The notes beneath the pieces were generated by a model that was not told the origin of the DNA, ran no database searches, and worked only from the letters and a program-made list of their open reading frames with translations. The position numbers and the translations under genes were made by a program. Shown in pieces: positions 22,921-31,015 of a DNA stretch of 64,000 nt. The first letter of the stretch is position 1. Every line of letters starts with the position of its first letter. The DNA is taken from sequence record OZ335963.1; one strand, given 5' to 3'. This stretch comes from a phage.

Positions 22921-23241
22921 TTATAGCGTAATCCATTCTCGTATTGTCTGAGTTACTACACGTTCACGGGGCTCGACTAGTTCAACAGTCGGAACTGCAT
23001 AATACCAGTCAGAATGGTAAGAACCTGAGCGAGATTCATTTACAGACACATGAACGTTATGTTTTGGACTAAAATAAACACACTGCCGATATTGGCATTT
23101 GCCATCTTGTACCCAATCTTCTATTTCGACAGGTTTAAGATAATCCGAAAAATCGAAATCATAATTTTCTGAAAATGCATCATGGTCTTCGATGATTTCA
23201 CTCAGAACTGCATCAACATCTAATTTATTTTCAATAGTCAT
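22921..23241 (-). CDS. hypothetical protein
   Basis: 106-aa ORF. Confidence 0.5.
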   Translation of the reverse strand: MTIENKLDVDAVLSEIIEDHDAFSENYDFDFSDYLKPVEIEDWVQDGKCQYRQCVYFSPKHNVHVSVNESRSGSYHSDWYYAVPTVELVEPRERVVTQTIREWITL

Positions 23242-23991: not shown

Positions 23992-24220
23992 ATTATTCCT
24001 TAATTCCTAGTACTTGTTTAAAAGTCTCGTCGTAATCAAGACTTTGGCCCGTTTGTTCTTTATGTTTGTATATAATATCACTTACTTCTGATAGCATATT
24101 TTATATGAACGAGTTAAAGCAGATTTAAGCACGCTGTATCTATCAGGAAATTTACCATGTTCATTATAATACGCTATTGCTAATTCACGGACTGCCTTTT
24201 CAGCAATCTCCATATATTCT

Positions 24221-24538
24221 TTACGCTTGGTCATTTTCTTCTCGGTCAAATCGGTGTTTGCAATGACGACATTTATAACGAAGATTACTAGTCTGCCAAT
24301 GGACTAATTGAACCTGTTCAGTACCGCATTCAGGACAATTAGGAACGTTTTTAGAAGCCCTTTCGCGACGTTCAACCATAGCCATAATGGCATCCCAAGC
24401 TGGAGGTTTAAAGTCTAAATCATCACAATCATGAATCTTTCCACGCATTTCCAGATCGTCTTCTTCACCAGCCATAATAATTTTAATTAGACTGGAATTA
24501 CTTGAAGCTGCGATATCTTCTAATAGACGCTTTTTCAT
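24221..24538 (-). CDS. hypothetical zinc-ribbon protein
   Basis: 105 aa with CPECG...CRHCKH four-cysteine motif. Confidence 0.5.
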
Positions 24539-25464
24539 TTTAATACCTCAATAGCATTACGTAAACCATTTGCTTTTGCATTAAGAGCTTTTAACAATTT
24601 GGTGTGTTCGGCAATCTGGGCTTCAACTTCAATTAAGCGAGCATTGAGATATTCACGTTCTTCGCTCAAGTTATCAATCTTTTCTACTTTAGGCTCTTTT
24701 ACAACTGTCTTATATGTATTAGGGTTCTTCAGTTTAATTAGAATGCGTGAACTGTATAACATTGAACCATTATCTTCGGTTTCGTCATACATTTCTACTA
24801 CGTCCATGATTTTTAGCATCATGCGGAGTTTATAAGACAACGAACGAATAGTTTTGTTGTGCTTATTAATTTCTTTAGAGTTCATGGTGCCGAGATTACG
24901 TGAGTAATAATAAGGAACCTGGATATCAATTGACAATGATGCGTTACCATTACCAGTTGGTTTGAATACTGCAGTAACCCAATCTTTAACATGAACTTTA
25001 TTTGTACGGTCATCGCCAGCGGTAAATAGTTTACGAGCATGCTTAAAAAGCATATTCACTTGGTCATTGAATTGACAAGAGAATTTATCAGCAAATTTAG
25101 TTTCAGGAATGGTAGATAGCCAATCAGCCAAATGGGTCTTTTTAACATCGTTAACAATAGTAAATTCAACCAAATCGGTTATAGATGTCGTAGATTTAAT
25201 GAAGCTCGGCTTCATAAAGTTTTTAATGTTATCGCGAGCTACAGTAGAAGATAACATACGAGAACGTTTAAACCATTCAAGCAAATTGCCTAATGAATGA
25301 GAATAGGCGTTCTGAGTATCTTTACAGATATGATTTTCCTGGCCAACATATTGAAGGAAATCACGAAGAATATTATTGATTACTGCTCTGTGTCCGATAT
25401 TATAATTACGGTGTTTAGTAATAAGACTGTCAAAATAATCAATATAATGTTTACGAGTTTTCAT
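24535..25464 (-). CDS. coiled-coil-tailed protein, paralogue A
   Basis: 309 aa; C-terminal heptad-rich segment; shares the KIMDVV/KYMDVV block with paralogue C. Confidence 0.6.
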   Translation of the reverse strand: MKTRKHYIDYFDSLITKHRNYNIGHRAVINNILRDFLQYVGQENHICKDTQNAYSHSLGNLLEWFKRSRMLSSTVARDNIKNFMKPSFIKSTTSITDLVEFTIVNDVKKTHLADWLSTIPETKFADKFSCQFNDQVNMLFKHARKLFTAGDDRTNKVHVKDWVTAVFKPTGNGNASLSIDIQVPYYYSRNLGTMNSKEINKHNKTIRSLSYKLRMMLKIMDVVEMYDETEDNGSMLYSSRILIKLKNPNTYKTVVKEPKVEKIDNLSEEREYLNARLIEVEAQIAEHTKLLKALNAKANGLRNAIEVLK

Positions 25465-25516
25465 GTTCTTCTCACTTGGTTAATGATTTATACTCCGAGC
25501 CATCCATGGCTTTAAA

Positions 25517-26518
25517 TTACTTAATTAACTGTAAAGCTTGTTCAAGACGATCCAGGCGATTAACAGATTCTTCCCAAATCCTTTTAGCCTGCTCATAATC
25601 TTTCTGCGCTTTATTAGAAATTTCTAGAGCTTCTTTATAAGCTTTTTCTAATGCAATAACTTCTGGACGAATTTCTACCGATTCAGGTGAATCATCAAGA
25701 TTATCCATTAGTTCCTCAGGGGTAGTTTCTTCTTTAGGAGTATTCACAATTTCCTCACATTTTTGTTGATAAATTTCTTTATCAGTCGGTGAGTACGCGC
25801 ACTTTACTTCACGAAGACTAACTACAATTTTGTATCCTTCCCAACCGCACATATTTTTAAAAGGATAAGTATAAATATTTTCTACTGTTTCCATACAAAG
25901 TAGTGCAGTCTCTAATTGACGAGTTATATCGCTAGCGATTGAGAAAAATTTATTAATGTTCTTTTGATTAGCTTCTGGTGTAAAAAATTCATAATTCACA
26001 AAAATAGCTGCTTTATTTTTATCAAGCTCATATTCTTTTATGATAATCATATCAGAAGCCCAAGGATGGATTTGACGATAATCGCCATAGCATAATTTAG
26101 AAGCTGATTTTAGAATTTGCTTCTTGAAAAGTCTAAAATTACTAATCCAACGACGAGTAAAAATATTCTCAGGGTCTTCTTTAATATTAAGATGATAAGA
26201 ATTAACATCACCGAACCAATTGTATCCTACTACATCTTTAGTTCGTTTAATTTCTTTCCCAAATTTACTAAGAATATCTTGATTAACTAAATATGAAAGA
26301 AGACGAGACCCTTTAAAGGTTTCCTTAATATCATCTTTATATTCGCGACTAGAAATTTTATGAACTTCATGAATAAATTTGTTGGAAGAAACAATACTTG
26401 CATCAGTATTATTGAGCCATTGATTGATAATGGAAATAACACTATTCTGACTAGACATAGGTTTAACTTTATCATCAATAACACTATTGAACGATTTGAT
26501 ATATTCGTTACGAGTCAT
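25517..26518 (-). CDS. coiled-coil-tailed protein, paralogue B
   Basis: Start at MTRNEY with GAGGAG Shine-Dalgarno (333 aa); FRLFKKQILKSASKL block shared with paralogue C. Confidence 0.6.
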   Translation of the reverse strand: MTRNEYIKSFNSVIDDKVKPMSSQNSVISIINQWLNNTDASIVSSNKFIHEVHKISSREYKDDIKETFKGSRLLSYLVNQDILSKFGKEIKRTKDVVGYNWFGDVNSYHLNIKEDPENIFTRRWISNFRLFKKQILKSASKLCYGDYRQIHPWASDMIIIKEYELDKNKAAIFVNYEFFTPEANQKNINKFFSIASDITRQLETALLCMETVENIYTYPFKNMCGWEGYKIVVSLREVKCAYSPTDKEIYQQKCEEIVNTPKEETTPEELMDNLDDSPESVEIRPEVIALEKAYKEALEISNKAQKDYEQAKRIWEESVNRLDRLEQALQLIK

Positions 26519-26544
26519 ATTAATCTCCTCAGTAGAAAGTAAGA

Positions 26545-26580
26545 ACATTATACCACATCCTTGTGGCAAAGTAAACTAGT
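26545..26580 (-). promoter_or_regulatory. early promoter
   Basis: Minus-strand GTTTAC, 15-nt spacer, TGGTATAAT. Confidence 0.55.
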
Positions 26581-27604
26581 TTAGTGCATTTAGTGCATTG
26601 TTCAGTTTAGAACGTTGCTTCGTGAGATTTTTGACTTTTTCTTGAGCTTTTTCTAGCATCTTTTCAGCTTCTAACACTTCATTAGTTGCTTTAACGAGTT
26701 CATCATCTACTGCCTTGATAGACTTCTCAATCGCATCTGCATGCCATTTTTCAACAGGTTTAAGACTCGGATTTTCAACAGGAAGAAAATTCGCTTTATT
26801 GAATTTCCATGCATCCTTATTACCTGAACTATACATCCAAAATTTAGGATCGTTTGATGAGCAATTGGATAAATTTAAGTTATAGTTATCTTGTACTTCC
26901 TGCTTTTTCTCTTGCGGGATTTCGTCCTTTCTCAAAAAATCATATTTAAATGAAACGATCATATCAAGTTCATATGTTGTTGTGTCTAATTTAAATCGTT
27001 CGAAATGCTGTGAAATCTTAGACTGAACAGCAGCAACAACATCCATATACTTAAATGCTTCTGTCAACTGCGATTTAAGGCATTCGCAAATTGAAAGAGA
27101 ATTTTTTGTATTAGGTTTAAAGCTAATTCGTGCAGTTCTATTATTTTCTTTTAATGGTCTTACTTCCATCTGAAGAGTATAACCATCAAATTTCAGATTC
27201 TTTAAATTAATGTCAGAACCTTTTAATCGACTAGCCGTCGACAAAATTTGTTTTAATTGTTTACGGAATAGAGCAATAAATCTCCATTCAATACGATAAT
27301 GATTTGGATTGAAAAATCCAGATGATAAATCGACCTTACTTTGACCAACGCCTTGAACAAATAGAGGATTTTTATAATCAATAGTTTTACAGAAATCGGT
27401 GAGCTGCTCACGAGCCGTCATTTGTGTAATATACCCCGCTTTACTAAAATTACTCACCCATTCACTGCTATTTAGATATTTAAAGTGATGAATAGCACGA
27501 TTAACTTTATCAGGGTCTAAATTATTTTCACACAAAAATGTCATAACATTACGAGTATCGCTGGCAGTACGAACCATATCTTCAATTTGAGAACGAGTTT
27601 TCAT
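26576..27604 (-). CDS. coiled-coil-tailed protein, paralogue C
   Basis: 342 aa; ALFRKQLKQILSTASRL block; C-terminal coiled coil. Confidence 0.6.
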   Translation of the reverse strand: MKTRSQIEDMVRTASDTRNVMTFLCENNLDPDKVNRAIHHFKYLNSSEWVSNFSKAGYITQMTAREQLTDFCKTIDYKNPLFVQGVGQSKVDLSSGFFNPNHYRIEWRFIALFRKQLKQILSTASRLKGSDINLKNLKFDGYTLQMEVRPLKENNRTARISFKPNTKNSLSICECLKSQLTEAFKYMDVVAAVQSKISQHFERFKLDTTTYELDMIVSFKYDFLRKDEIPQEKKQEVQDNYNLNLSNCSSNDPKFWMYSSGNKDAWKFNKANFLPVENPSLKPVEKWHADAIEKSIKAVDDELVKATNEVLEAEKMLEKAQEKVKNLTKQRSKLNNALNALN

Positions 27605-27612
27605 GGTGTTCC

Positions 27613-28518
27613 TTAAGATTTAAGTAAATCAACAATTTTAATTAACTTTTCACGCTCAGATTTAGCTTTACTACTCAATCCAGATAGTCTGAAAATTTCA
27701 TCATCATATTGTTGAATAGAAATATTCAGCTCTTCAATTTGCTTATTAAAATAATCAATTTGTTCAGAATGTTTTTCATTACTACTAATTGGTACAGGTT
27801 TCGTAGGTAATGTAGTTGAACTGGATTCATCCGGGCGGTAAATTAAAATACAACTTGAACCAATAGGGCATTTTGCACCAGATGAATATTCTAATGTTCC
27901 AGATTCTTTTAAAACTTCAAAAGCTAAACAGAGATGATGCCCCATATTAACATAATCTGTGGAGCGAGCTCTGATGTAATAATCATCGCCACGAATACTA
28001 AATTTAAAGCATTTAAGGTCTTCCGTATTATTGGTCTTAAAAATCATTTGTTTATCTAGACCTTTAGCTAATCGAGCGCCTAATGCTAATAATCGTCGTT
28101 GATTTTCCCACAAATCCGCAATCATTTGATCGAATGATAATTTCGGCATTAGTCGACCATAAAGGTCATATCCTTTATTATAATTACGAAGGATTTCACT
28201 CGCGTTAATACGAGACAATGCTCCAATTTTATTAAGAGCTTTCATAATGCGATTAGATAAACTCATTCCAGACCCATTTGTTCGCTGTAAATGTTTTTCT
28301 AATCCAAATCCAATATCAACTTTAAACTTATCTAAAATTTCTGCATGAACATCTCTGTCGATAACATTCAAATCCAAAGTTGGGTTAAATCTATGAAAAA
28401 ATTTATCTGGCTCTGCACTGCGAAATACAGTCCATTCATTCATCATTTTTTTATTAACTAAAGATTTAATTACTGCATTGACATTATTAATTACTACTGA
28501 CATATTTTCCTCACTCAA
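27613..28518 (-). CDS. coiled-coil-tailed protein, paralogue D
   Basis: 301 aa; RRLLALGARLAKG block; C-terminal coiled coil. Confidence 0.55.
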   Translation of the reverse strand: MSEENMSVVINNVNAVIKSLVNKKMMNEWTVFRSAEPDKFFHRFNPTLDLNVIDRDVHAEILDKFKVDIGFGLEKHLQRTNGSGMSLSNRIMKALNKIGALSRINASEILRNYNKGYDLYGRLMPKLSFDQMIADLWENQRRLLALGARLAKGLDKQMIFKTNNTEDLKCFKFSIRGDDYYIRARSTDYVNMGHHLCLAFEVLKESGTLEYSSGAKCPIGSSCILIYRPDESSSTTLPTKPVPISSNEKHSEQIDYFNKQIEELNISIQQYDDEIFRLSGLSSKAKSEREKLIKIVDLLKS

Positions 28519-28922
28519 TCAATTTCAATTTTACTAAATATACAGAATAAGATGGAACAGACTATATAAGCACCACACACAGATTGAACTAATACCATTC
28601 CAAAGAACCAAACAATATTATCAAACAATGTCTGTTTTACGTCGAAAGGACGTAAACTTACAGTAATATTATCACCTTTTTCTATTGAAGAATACATCTC
28701 TGGGGAAATATATTCACTAAATCTATAACCGTCTTTGAGTTCATATACGGCAATAAACGATAAACTAGACCCTTTTCCTTGTGTTCCTGTAATGGTATTA
28801 ACTACAGTAACATCATAATCTTTATAATGCATATAATCATTAATTGCGTAATAACCATATGCAACTACTACACATAAACAACATATCAATAAATTCAATC
28901 TTCTAATTATCAACCGTTTCAT
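28515..28922 (-). CDS. membrane protein
   Basis: 135 aa with N- and C-terminal hydrophobic helices. Confidence 0.55.
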   Translation of the reverse strand: MKRLIIRRLNLLICCLCVVVAYGYYAINDYMHYKDYDVTVVNTITGTQGKGSSLSFIAVYELKDGYRFSEYISPEMYSSIEKGDNITVSLRPFDVKQTLFDNIVWFFGMVLVQSVCGAYIVCSILFCIFSKIEID

Positions 28923-28940
28923 AATAATCTCAATTAAAAG

Positions 28941-28985
28941 GGCTTAGAACCATTATACCATCCTTGGTATAAAGCGGTTATGCGA
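28941..28985 (-). promoter_or_regulatory. candidate early promoter (extended -10 TGGTATAAT)
   Basis: Strong extended -10 on the minus strand, weaker -35. Confidence 0.4.
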
Positions 28986-29505
28986 GTACCGTCTTTAACC
29001 GTTCTTCAAACTTCCGAAGAGTATTTTGGCGTTCAGCTCTTTGCTTTTTGTAAGTTTCAATACGCTCTGAAATGAGAGAGTATCGTTCATTTACTGATTC
29101 TTTCATAAAATCAGGAATTTCACGAGAAGCTTTAATCTCGTCAAATTTATCAATAACAGCTTGCTCTTCAGCAATTAAGTTATCATACATTAAAATATCT
29201 TTCTTGATGAACTCAATATCTTCTTGAGTTACACGAGATAATTTAGATGCTTTATCCTTTTTGTACTGTTCGTTAGTATCACGAGACCAGTGTAATGTAC
29301 GATTTTTATTCGTATTTTTGTAAATTTCTACAATACCGATCTCATCAATAATAACGATCCAATTCCAACGGGATTTGTAAATTTGTCCTCCATCAACAGT
29401 GATTTCACCTCCGATTGAGATGTCATTAAAGAACTTGCTTTGTGCTTCAGATTTAAATTTACCATCATTGTAATTTACCAAGTTGAAAATATCTTTAGCG
29501 TTCAT
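28978..29505 (-). CDS. hypothetical protein
   Basis: 175-aa ORF with helical C-terminus, directly downstream of an early promoter. Confidence 0.55.
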   Translation of the reverse strand: MNAKDIFNLVNYNDGKFKSEAQSKFFNDISIGGEITVDGGQIYKSRWNWIVIIDEIGIVEIYKNTNKNRTLHWSRDTNEQYKKDKASKLSRVTQEDIEFIKKDILMYDNLIAEEQAVIDKFDEIKASREIPDFMKESVNERYSLISERIETYKKQRAERQNTLRKFEERLKTVLA

Positions 29506-29520
29506 TTTCTGTTCCTCCGT

Positions 29521-29572
29521 AGTTGATAGAGTAATAATACCACAGAGGAACAGTCTTGTAAACCACTAAAAG
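29521..29572 (-). promoter_or_regulatory. T4-type early promoter
   Basis: Minus-strand GTTTACAAGACTGTTCCTCTGTGGTATTATTAC, same core as the promoter at 4200. Confidence 0.65.
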
Positions 29573-29880
29573 AAACTTCTTTCACAATTTTTTCCACTGA
29601 ACCATGCACTTACCGCTTTCTTAGTCTCAGGAGCAGTGTTATCCATAAACCATTCAAAGGCAGCCTTTTTATGATTCTGGAGGGCTTCTCGGGCTTTAAT
29701 CTGTTCACGGTCTATTAACACTAACATATGAGCCTTTCTTGTCACCATGGGCTTCTTATGATTTTTTGAATACTCCCAATCATTTGTCCATCGCATTGTC
29801 GTTGCGAACTGAAATACTGCTTCTTTAATTTTAGTTTCGTAAATTTCACGAGCCTTTGAGTATAACATCACTACCTCCAT
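29566..29880 (-). CDS. hypothetical protein
   Basis: 104-aa ORF. Confidence 0.5.
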   Translation of the reverse strand: MEVVMLYSKAREIYETKIKEAVFQFATTMRWTNDWEYSKNHKKPMVTRKAHMLVLIDREQIKAREALQNHKKAAFEWFMDNTAPETKKAVSAWFSGKNCERSFF

Positions 29881-29969
29881 TCACCAGTTTAATTCTAGTC
29901 ATCTTTTTAATGGCAGTCCATATAATCTATTTCTGAACTGCCTTTTTGTCATAGAAGTCCTCTTATGAA

Positions 29970-30956
29970 TTATTTCAGAAGAGTAACCTCAGCGATTTCT
30001 TCCCAACCGTTTTTGTCGGTCATAATAAAGTCAGCAAGATAAAGAGCAGTACGCAGTGAAACATTGCGTAAACGATTAACATTAACTTTCATCCATGATA
30101 ATGCTTTATAAGTTTCTTCATCAGAAAGACCGCGCTTTTGCATCATGTCAGTTGAAAGAATAACATCTTCAACCCTGACCATAATTTCTTCATTAGTATG
30201 AACACCCAAATCCAAATAAACCGAGCGGGACACTAATGCTTGTAAATGTGGAGCAAGTTTAGTACCACGGTCTAATTCGCGGTCAATGTCAACGTTTGTG
30301 ATAAAAACAATCGTTCCTTTAAATTCAAACTCACGCTCAATGCCTTTTTCTTCTAAGTAAGAAGACGCAGTGCTCCAGCAGACTTTACGGGTCTCTCCAG
30401 TGTCCAGAGCAGCTTTTAGAAGATTAAGAATGTCCATATCAGAGAAAACATCCACATCATCAATCAAAAGGACAGAATTCTCTTCACGATTATTCCAAAG
30501 CTGTTCATAAAGACCAATACCAGAGATTTTACCATTAATGCTTTTATATTCAATGTATCCAATATCATTTGCTTTATTCAAAGCTTTATCTAAAGAATAC
30601 GTTTTACCAATACCTGCTGCGCCAGAGATAATTAATGAACGAATATTTCCATTAATAATACCATTCGTCATCATTCCCATAACATTAAATCTTTTATTAA
30701 TGCGGGTTTTCATATCTTCATACGATTCTTTAACTTCTTCAACTTTTACACCATCATATGAAATATCTGATTTGTAAACCCAAACACCGCGACGTTTACC
30801 GTCAATTTCAACAAAAACTTTACCATCTCCTTGTGCATCTACCGGAGCATTATCTGGGAACCATTCGCCTAAGAGCTCAAAAGTTCCAGAGATTTCTTTA
30901 CCGAAGTAGATACCCTTATTGATAGTTACAGTTTTCATTTTATTCTCCAATTTCAC
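29970..30956 (-). CDS. P-loop ATPase
   Basis: 328 aa; Walker A GAAGIGKT and Walker B VLLIDDVD preceded by about 100-aa N-terminal domain. Confidence 0.6.
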   Translation of the reverse strand: MKLENKMKTVTINKGIYFGKEISGTFELLGEWFPDNAPVDAQGDGKVFVEIDGKRRGVWVYKSDISYDGVKVEEVKESYEDMKTRINKRFNVMGMMTNGIINGNIRSLIISGAAGIGKTYSLDKALNKANDIGYIEYKSINGKISGIGLYEQLWNNREENSVLLIDDVDVFSDMDILNLLKAALDTGETRKVCWSTASSYLEEKGIEREFEFKGTIVFITNVDIDRELDRGTKLAPHLQALVSRSVYLDLGVHTNEEIMVRVEDVILSTDMMQKRGLSDEETYKALSWMKVNVNRLRNVSLRTALYLADFIMTDKNGWEEIAEVTLLK

Positions 30957-30962
30957 ATTTGT

Positions 30963-31015
30963 TTTGATAGGGTAATAGTATCACACTACTACCCTACTGT
31001 AAACAATTTATTTTA
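30963..31015 (-). promoter_or_regulatory. early promoter
   Basis: Minus-strand GTTTACAGTAGGGTAGTAGTGTGATACTAT. Confidence 0.5.

Follow-up and report, generated by a model that had tools for sequence, protein, structure and literature searches.

A probable superfamily of four tandem genes, nrdC.3 to nrdC.6, in a putative counter-defence island of a T4-like phage

Gene organization

The DNA analysed here, a stretch of 64,000 nucleotides of the phage sequence record OZ335963.1 that we call the window, carries four adjacent genes, nrdC.3 (A), nrdC.4 (B), nrdC.5 (C) and nrdC.6 (D), all on the minus strand. On the sequence comparisons presented below, their products probably make up one superfamily, restricted to Straboviridae and grown by tandem duplication between nrdC.2 and nrdC.7/nrdC.8, the part of nrdC.6 in it being probable. 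The window is from a Tequatrovirus (T4-like) genome: a 5-kb query over the region retrieved 742 phage records, 465 of them covering at least 80% of it, and the gene order (gp49, pin, 49.1-49.3, nrdC, and nrdC.1 through nrdC.11) is that of RB51 and T4. Judged by their sequences, the four open reading frames (ORFs) are nrdC.3, nrdC.4, nrdC.5 and nrdC.6 of a T4-like phage (Table 1). An earlier reading of this DNA, made from the sequence only, had described four consecutive genes in tandem, and the four minus-strand ORFs do follow one another as it said, the last of them reaching 28518 in its longest form.

It is in the length of this fourth gene that the earlier description fails. The 301 amino acid (aa) frame that it gave begins at a TTG at 28518 and overlaps the end of nrdC.7. 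We took nrdC.6 as 296 aa because GAGG lies six bases upstream of the ATG at 28503 and because nearly all database orthologues are 295-296 aa long; translation most likely starts at this ATG. The T4 reference gene (NC_000866, locus L002, 10067-10894) is annotated as 275 aa and matches the 296-aa protein in two pieces, while the frame is intact, at 296 aa, in T4T (HM137666), and the T4 reference nrdC.6 therefore contains, close to its tail, either a frameshift or an error of sequencing. In NrdC.6 of Shigella phage Sf25 (P0122, 378 aa) a part of the protein is repeated in tandem: the window protein aligns to it twice with its residues 182-301 (in the 301-aa numbering), the two alignments overlapping by about 83 residues, and the repeat runs from the latter half of the head into the beginning of the tail.

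The databases hold the four proteins in three families. Only nrdC.5 belongs to Pfam DUF7235 (PF23882), which it matches over residues 1-342 with 416.8 bits against a cut-off of 30; it is the orthologue of T4 NrdC.5 and sits at the same genome position. The other three differ from T4 NrdC.5, being its remote relatives only, and have no PF23882 match at E <=1. Full-length members of phrog_1435 are nrdC.3 and nrdC.4, and the homologues of nrdC.4 bear a precomputed PF26897 assignment; nrdC.6 is full-length in phrog_2257, and every one of the 105 homologues found for it carries a precomputed PF26899. These two families, phrog_1435/PF26897 and phrog_2257/PF26899, are kept separate in the databases with no function assigned, and their link with each other and with DUF7235 comes from the present analysis. 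The first three proteins begin with M(K)TR, and the nucleotides ATG(AAA)ACTCGT are conserved as well; nrdC.6 starts differently. This common start could reflect shared ancestry, gene conversion or a constraint on translation initiation.

Table 1. Positions in the window of the four genes, their parts and the neighbouring features
Feature	Position	Strand	Description
nrdC.3 (A)	24535-25464	minus	309 aa; 62% identical to T4 NrdC.3; phrog_1435, E 4.1e-114, residues 2-309
nrdC.4 (B)	25517-26518	minus	333 aa; 88% identical to T4 NrdC.4; phrog_1435, E 5.9e-164, residues 1-333
nrdC.5 (C)	26576-27604	minus	342 aa; 92% identical, full length, to T4 NrdC.5; PF23882 match
nrdC.6 (D)	27613-28503	minus	296 aa; T4 NrdC.6 96% identical over 259 residues; phrog_2257, E 3.2e-150
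Core motif block of C	27203-27268	minus	FRKQLKQILSTASRLKGSDINL; same profile columns as the blocks of A, B and D
Core motif block, equivalent in A	25003-25059	minus	by profile columns
Core motif block, equivalent in B	26072-26137	minus	by profile columns
Core motif block, equivalent in D	28045-28104	minus	by profile columns
Linker of C, residues 229-283	26756-26920	minus	segment W-K-x-N ... KP(V/I)E-x-(W/Y)-(H/Y)-A; pLDDT <50
Tail of A, residues 265-309	24538-24672	minus	heptad score 0.68, rank 2/78
Tail of B, residues 284-333	25520-25669	minus	ends RLEQALQLIK; heptad score 0.46, rank 4/78; aligns with the A and C tails
Tail of C, residues 286-342	26579-26749	minus	ends KLNNALNALN; heptad score 0.82, rank 1/78
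Tail of D, residues 241-296	27616-27783	minus	ends KLIKIVDLLKS; AlphaFold2 helices 241-272 and 277-295; heptad score 0.40, rank 6/78
Predicted T4 early-type promoter of B	26547-26575	minus	GTTTAC, 17 nucleotides, TGgTATAAT; consensus scan and reading
Hairpin in promoter spacer	26551-26568	minus	seven pairs, TGCCACA AGGA TGTGGTA
M(K)TR starts of A, B and C	25455-25464, 26510-26518, 27596-27604	minus	ATG(AAA)ACTCGT
Residues 30-86 of A	25207-25377	minus	weak resemblance to the N-terminal SAM-like domain of XerD/phage integrases
gp49.2	22921-23241	minus	about 1.3 kb from the array, past its nrdC.3 end
nrdC.2	24221-24538	minus	105 aa; C-terminal four-cysteine zinc ribbon CPEC...CRHC
nrdC.8	28978-29505	minus	175 aa; heptad-like helical tail, rank 5/78
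nrdC.10	29970-30956	minus	AAA+/clamp-loader-like ATPase, Walker A GAAGIGKT

Relationships among the four proteins

Family alignments built from 226 homologues and the orthologues in the fetched loci were compared by hhalign, with column-shuffled and reversed alignments as controls. In these comparisons nrdC.3 and nrdC.4 are clearly homologous (probability 98.4%, E 6e-15, score 106) and nrdC.4 and nrdC.5 probably so (77%, E 2e-5, score 44), both over the full length, with control scores of at most 26 for the two pairs and a value of at most 20.5 given for the second. Directly compared, nrdC.3 and nrdC.5 are not significantly similar (E 0.06), and their link runs only through nrdC.4 and bridging sequences such as P0233, a protein that matches all three. 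Single-sequence BLAST likewise joins only nrdC.3 to nrdC.4 (E 6e-5) and nrdC.4 to nrdC.5 (E 0.005), and phrog_26858 has weak matches to both nrdC.4 and nrdC.5. A hidden Markov model (HMM) search of 1.84 billion representative proteins gave 18 matches, all belonging to the family of these proteins, with bridging proteins such as P0233 among them, and none bacterial, and there is therefore no functional clue from a host counterpart. The search for loci related to nrdC.3 returned seven close loci only.

The sequence-only reading had rested its claim of kinship on blocks matched by eye, and these prove to be in register in the profile alignments: FRLFKKQILKSASKL of nrdC.4, FRKQLKQILSTASRL of nrdC.5 and RRLLALGARLAKG of nrdC.6 occupy the same profile columns, as do KIMDVVEMYD of nrdC.3 and KYMDVVAAVQ of nrdC.5, the other pair that it had proposed.

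The place of nrdC.6 is harder to establish. Its direct hhalign comparisons are not significant (E 0.006 with nrdC.3, 0.046 with nrdC.4 and 0.085 with nrdC.5). A broad A+B+C profile that includes the bridging proteins aligns with it at a probability of 61% in local and 83.5% in global mode (E 8e-5 to 9e-7, score 40.5); the controls reach at most 23 in 30 shuffles and 21 for the reversed alignment, and the unrelated neighbours nrdC.2,.7,.8,.9 and.10 score at most 17.6 against the same profile. A second comparison of two working alignments (A2 vs A1) gave 8.4% (E 0.004) over the same motif block, and on sequence alone we therefore call nrdC.6 a 'probable' relative: its probability spans 8% to 61-83% depending on the profile used, still above all controls. 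Three motif blocks, those that had been noticed by eye, keep their order in every comparison of A+B+C with D, namely FK-x-SR-LLS...L-x-x-F opposite L-x-K-x-G-x-LSR-x-NA, ILK-x-AS-KL-x-x-GD-x-R opposite RLLALGARLA-x-G-x-DKQ, and QL-x-x-AL-x-x-M-x-x-V opposite the matching helix of nrdC.6. When the A+B+C HMM was run over the ORFs of five loci, the next match after the true A-, B- and C-type members was nrdC.6 of JS10 (E 4e-4). The superfamily profile, the order of elements and the structural neighbours described below together indicate that nrdC.6 is probably a more distant member of the same superfamily.

The earlier claim of four diverged paralogues is supported, with differing strength: the nrdC.3-nrdC.4 pair is secure, the nrdC.4-nrdC.5 pair well supported, and nrdC.6 a probable member. 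Set against random expectation, the first two pairs exceed their shuffled and reversed controls, and the direct comparisons A-C, A-D, B-D and C-D do not reach significance. Three further candidates were rejected by profile comparison: nrdC.8 (175 aa, with a helical tail) as a fifth member (hhalign 0.6% and 0.4%), and, on the same grounds, two phage proteins, one of 272 aa from Klebsiella phage KPV15 and one of 269 aa from Acinetobacter phage Konradin.

Predicted structures

Monomers of nrdC.5 and nrdC.6 were modelled with AlphaFold2, with a predicted local distance difference test score (pLDDT) of 73 and 76, respectively, and all that we say of the fold refers to these two models. Both run in the same order from N-terminal helices through a helix pair that bears the core motif block, a strand-strand-helix-strand-strand domain and a linker to a long C-terminal helix. 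Aligned as secondary-structure strings the two give z = 3.8, better than all 100 shuffles of the element order. In Foldseek searches of BFVD, five targets are common to the best ten or eleven matches of each model (E <=1e-3), all of them uncharacterised proteins of 300-375 aa, from Erwinia phage Cronus, Klebsiella phage Mineola, Acinetobacter phage fHyAci03, Pectobacterium phage PM2 and Serratia phage CBH8. By element order and shared neighbours, the models of nrdC.5 and nrdC.6 appear to have the same fold and topology.

The Acinetobacter neighbour ties this fold to the locus by its position, since the 343-aa Konradin orthologue of the fHyAci03 protein is encoded directly upstream of an nrdC-type glutaredoxin gene, between nrdC.10 and nrdC, the interval in which the T4 array sits; compared with the A+B+C profile, the Konradin protein reaches a probability of 50%. 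When the PDB was searched by sequence with the two family profiles, nothing but designed helical repeats came up, at E >0.006. Among the BFVD matches of the nrdC.5 model there is also a weak one (E 4e-3) to a protein of 175 aa from Klebsiella phage KPV15.

The low-confidence parts of the models are the linkers, residues 229-283 in nrdC.5 (pLDDT <50) and 228-243 in nrdC.6. In nrdC.5 the linker carries, just before the tail, a segment kept among C-type proteins that are only 29-38% identical overall, and this conserved segment may be a binding motif.

C-terminal helical tails

Each of the four proteins ends in a long, proline-free helix; that of nrdC.5 is modelled as a single helix over residues 286-341 with block pLDDT of 74-90. 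With a simple C-terminal heptad score applied to the 78 window ORFs of at least 100 aa, the tails rank 1, 2, 4 and 6, which bears out the heptad-like endings that had been read from the sequence. All four share the terminal motif L-x-x-[AI]-[LIV]-x-x-[LIV]-[KN], found in no other of the 78 ORFs and with about 0.01 occurrences expected by residue shuffling. It recurs in distant members that lie outside its definition, the proteins P0233, P0236, P0237 and JS10_0084. The tails may associate into coiled-coil oligomers.

A 173-aa ORF on an 803-bp metagenome contig (P0235; L014, 120-641) lies directly upstream of the nrdC.4 start and fuses a 120-aa head, in frame, to the exact 53-residue tail of NrdC.5; the head has no match in the phage collection. 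This is either a head swap that kept the tail or an assembly chimera, and unless it is the latter, the tail behaves as a module. In RB69 the C-type protein (annotated 'nrdC.5', L011 2571-3473, 300 aa) has lost the helical tail through an apparent frameshift, and a closely related Mosigvirus contig (L005 6976-7935) has a 319-aa C-type version with the tail, ending KLFNAMNALKS.

Promoter of nrdC.4

The early promoter that had been ascribed to nrdC.4 was recovered as a conserved consensus match, followed by GAGGAG and the ATG. This stretch is almost invariant in seven Tequatrovirus genomes, T4 and RB51 among them, and more conserved than the surrounding coding sequence, so that it may be taken as a predicted early promoter. 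A seven-pair hairpin falls exactly in the promoter spacer and is conserved with it; the scan called it terminator-like, and it has no clear T run.

Evolution and composition of the array

We compared the genes of this phage with those of six other Tequatrovirus genomes by their gene-wide ratio of nonsynonymous to synonymous substitution rates (dN/dS). The ratio is 0.23-0.35 for nrdC.3, 0.19-0.25 for nrdC.4, 0.14-0.20 for nrdC.5 and 0.07-0.15 for nrdC.6, compared with 0-0.02 for gp49, 0.08-0.14 for nrdC and 0-0.11 for nrdC.8, nrdC.9 and nrdC.10. With values this low, all four are real genes under purifying selection, the first three evolving several times faster than their conserved neighbours; nearby accessory genes are as high or higher (pin 0.14-0.30, nrdC.7 0.24-1.01). 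No positive selection is seen by this gene-wide measure for any of the four, all of which remain below 1, so that their diversification shows itself in rapid evolution, in alleles that fall into deeply separated classes and in the gain and loss of genes, and positive selection is not demonstrated. This qualifies the proposal of host-driven selection.

The allele classes are most evident in nrdC.3, which falls into three, of about 90, 80 and 62% identity. Alleles of 62% identity sit in genomes that are otherwise 88-100% identical, between near-identical flanks; NrdC.10 is 99-100% identical across Tequatrovirus.

The sequence-only reading had suggested looking at presence and absence across T-even phages, and the array is indeed variable. 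The genera do not carry the same set of genes: Tequatrovirus has A-B-C-D, Mosigvirus (RB69) has A-C-D, Dhakavirus (JS10) has B-C-D, and Acinetobacter T4-like phages have a single copy. In phage ACG-C40 (L015 4305-4716) a 71-aa stump of nrdC.5 is joined to the last 72 codons of nrdC.3, a natural collapse of the array in which B is gone entirely and C and A for the most part. Another protein without nrdC.4, P0120, is a C/A hybrid in which residues 146-274 of nrdC.5 are joined to residues 129-309 of nrdC.3; its junction is out of register and lies at a short KVN/QVN microhomology, and PF26897 is recorded for it. Genes that are dispensable and variably present are as expected of accessory genes.

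Evidence for counter-defence

An evolved deletion mutant of T4 fails on ECOR17 and on MG1655 carrying the ECOR17 dsr1 gene, and T4 nrdC.5 alone, supplied from a plasmid, restores its plating (Srikant, Guegler and Laub, eLife 2022, PMC9391042). Dsr1 is a SIR2 NADase; its tetratricopeptide repeat (TPR) sensor and the sensor of Avs7 are homologues, and a co-expression screen pointed to a phage major capsid protein as the trigger of Dsr1 (preprint PMC12803255). Nearby, gp49.2 of T6 inhibits the OLD defence (2026, PMC13096335), and the RB51 and T4 records annotate pin, in the same window, as an inhibitor of the host Lon protease; nrdC.1-6 can be deleted in T4 (PMC9825161). With gp49.2, pin and nrdC.5 together, we regard this stretch as a counter-defence island, and we place the array in it because nrdC.5 defeats Dsr1, gp49.2 inhibits OLD, and the genes are deletable and naturally absent from some phages. 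In the RB51 and T4 records gp49.2 itself is annotated 'ribonucleotide reductase'.

The anti-defence or host-range role suggested from the sequence is therefore published for one gene, T4 nrdC.5, the 92% identical orthologue of C. Since T4 nrdC.5 disarms Dsr1 and the others are remote relatives of it, nrdC.6 a probable one, nrdC.3, nrdC.4 and nrdC.6 are good candidates for further counter-defence genes. Scans of Pfam, NCBIfam and PADLOC gave nothing above threshold for nrdC.3, nrdC.4 or nrdC.6, and the Pfam and NCBIfam scans gave no membrane segment and no enzymatic signature in any paralogue. Among the 5027 PADLOC defence models, no paralogue had a match below E 0.01, the sole listing being BrxF to nrdC.3 at the chance level of E 0.028. 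The resemblance of residues 30-86 of nrdC.3 to a SAM-like domain is weak, its values (Pfam E 0.085, NCBIfam E 0.0015-0.04) being far below the curated cut-offs.

Proposed mechanism

On balance, and with some confidence, we favour the interpretation that nrdC.3-6 are one superfamily of early, dispensable accessory genes in a counter-defence island, whose products act as stoichiometric inhibitors of host immune sensors. The layout common to them would comprise an N-terminal helical region, a helix pair with ILK-x-AS-K/R-L...G-D, a sheet domain of four strands with a helix between the second and the third, a flexible linker and a long C-terminal amphipathic helix ending in L-x-x-A-(L/I)-x-x-L-K. 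Each paralogue would be a protein inhibitor working stoichiometrically, its divergent head binding a different host immune sensor, helped perhaps in the C-type proteins by the conserved linker motif. NrdC.5 would bind Dsr1, probably at its TPR sensor, the part that detects the major capsid protein. Through the conserved tail the inhibitor would oligomerise and so gain avidity, and duplication, divergence, allele exchange and loss would fit the repertoire to the defences of the hosts met by each phage lineage. The analysis supports what the sequence-only reading had proposed, as a role shown in published work on T4 for one gene and predicted for three.

Several of our results weigh against this interpretation. 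Besides the non-significant direct comparisons of nrdC.6 and the low value from the working alignments, the heptad scores of nrdC.4 and nrdC.6 are modest (0.46 and 0.40) beside the strong ones of nrdC.3 and nrdC.5 (0.68 and 0.82), and the terminal motif was defined after the four proteins had been seen. The models of nrdC.5 and nrdC.6 are of medium confidence, and their likeness was judged by element order and shared neighbours. Gene-wide dN/dS, well below 1, does not demonstrate an arms race. The functional evidence is limited to nrdC.5 and comes from T4, where the protein may act by direct binding or indirectly.

A bolder extension, which we regard as improbable, makes the conserved tail a portable assembly or docking module on which varied heads, that of P0235 included, would come together as one homo- or hetero-oligomeric, multi-headed 'decoy hub'. 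Such a hub would neutralise several host pattern-recognition sensors at once, Dsr1 and Avs7-type relatives among them, and each of the genes nrdC.3, nrdC.4 and nrdC.6 would stand for a new specificity in anti-defence.

Alternative explanations

Three other explanations were weighed, and each is rated below the inhibitor interpretation. One would confine paralogy to nrdC.3, nrdC.4 and nrdC.5 and take nrdC.6 as unrelated and convergent, a helical tail with a small alpha/beta head being common in phage early proteins. The poor direct profile values and the 8.4% from the working alignments speak for it, as do the separate family in which PHROGs and Pfam hold nrdC.6, and the adjoining nrdC.8, which likewise has a helical tail and is yet unrelated. 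The score of nrdC.6 against the A+B+C profile nevertheless lies well above those of the shuffled, reversed and unrelated-neighbour controls, the same three motifs come in the same order in every comparison, the secondary-structure elements of the nrdC.5 and nrdC.6 models follow one order, five structural neighbours are held in common, and in each of the three genera that were examined it is the same end of the array that holds a D-type gene. We consider convergence rather unlikely.

The four could also be true paralogues whose primary role is an early remodelling of some host or phage process (transcription, the nucleoid or the time at which late proteins are made, for example), with the rescue from Dsr1 being indirect, for instance through an altered exposure of the capsid-protein trigger. 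The genes are early, with a conserved early-type promoter, residues 30-86 of nrdC.3 weakly recall the SAM-like domain found at the N terminus of tyrosine recombinases (E 0.085 in Pfam and 0.0015 in NCBIfam, both far below cut-off), and nrdC.6 is under fairly strong purifying selection (dN/dS 0.07-0.15), all of which would suit such a role. Genes that are dispensable in the laboratory host and missing from natural phages fit accessory counter-defence better, however, and nrdC.5 from a plasmid suffices by itself against Dsr1, which makes this explanation unlikely in our view. Accessory regions of T4 also contain exclusion genes, in imm, sp and the rII/rex-type interactions, and tandem diversified paralogues are typical of such loci, so that the array might instead serve to exclude or defend against competing phages or mobile elements (superinfection exclusion). 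This we judge very improbable, as the PADLOC models gave no match below E 0.01, no paralogue shows a membrane segment or an enzymatic signature, and the sole member tested acts against a host defence.

Relation to known systems

The closest working analogy for NrdC.5 is DSAD1 of SPbeta-group phage, which is described as an inhibitor of DSR2, with cryo-electron microscopy structures reported for DSR2 with DSAD1 (PMC10973363, PMC10981675, PMC11087589): it is a phage protein that blocks a defence-associated sirtuin NADase, as NrdC.5 would. The array proteins were tested for similarity to DSAD1 in sequence or fold, and none was found. The anti-OLD protein gp49.2 and the anti-toxin island dmd/tifA/adfA are likewise early, dispensable, fast-evolving small proteins in islands; these are single unrelated genes, whereas in the array described here one fold has undergone three or four tandem duplications, and the helical tail is shared.

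The genes have long been known and one function has been published, so that the advance is an incremental one, with no new kind of system. What is new is limited to three things: the joining of three database families in one superfamily, the shared tail signature, and the prediction of counter-defence for nrdC.3, nrdC.4 and nrdC.6. Since the annotation of the T4 genome, nrdC.3-nrdC.6 have stood as 'hypothetical'. If they are one fast-evolving family with NrdC.5, then the products of nrdC.3, nrdC.4 and nrdC.6 are candidates for the inhibition of further immune sensors of the host, and the allele classes of nrdC.3, together with the genus-specific array, may help to explain differences in host range among therapeutic T4-like phages. 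The shared tail would offer a handle for pull-downs and engineering, and the array would be one more example of counter-defence genes diversifying through tandem duplication, here in a lytic model phage.

Neighbouring genes and annotation

The genes flanking the array differ in their conservation. The start of nrdC.2 and the stop of nrdC.3 overlap; nrdC.2 has weak matches to several zinc-ribbon families of Pfam and is variable, at 70-90% identity between phages, with dN/dS up to 0.39. nrdC.8 is 98-99% conserved and has no profile similarity to the array; a 2026 paper on DRT1 places T4 nrdC.8 with nucleotide reductases, a placement to which the sequence gives no support. nrdC.10 occurs in 1312 phage records, those of Vibrio, Aeromonas and jumbo phages among them; its conservation contrasts sharply with the variable array beside it.

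Orthologues of nrdC.3-nrdC.10 (the region 24000-31000 of the window) are often labelled 'thioredoxin' in GenBank. No thioredoxin fold and no Pfam thioredoxin match was found for any of nrdC.3-nrdC.10, and the label seems to have been carried over from the name of the locus, nrdC.x.

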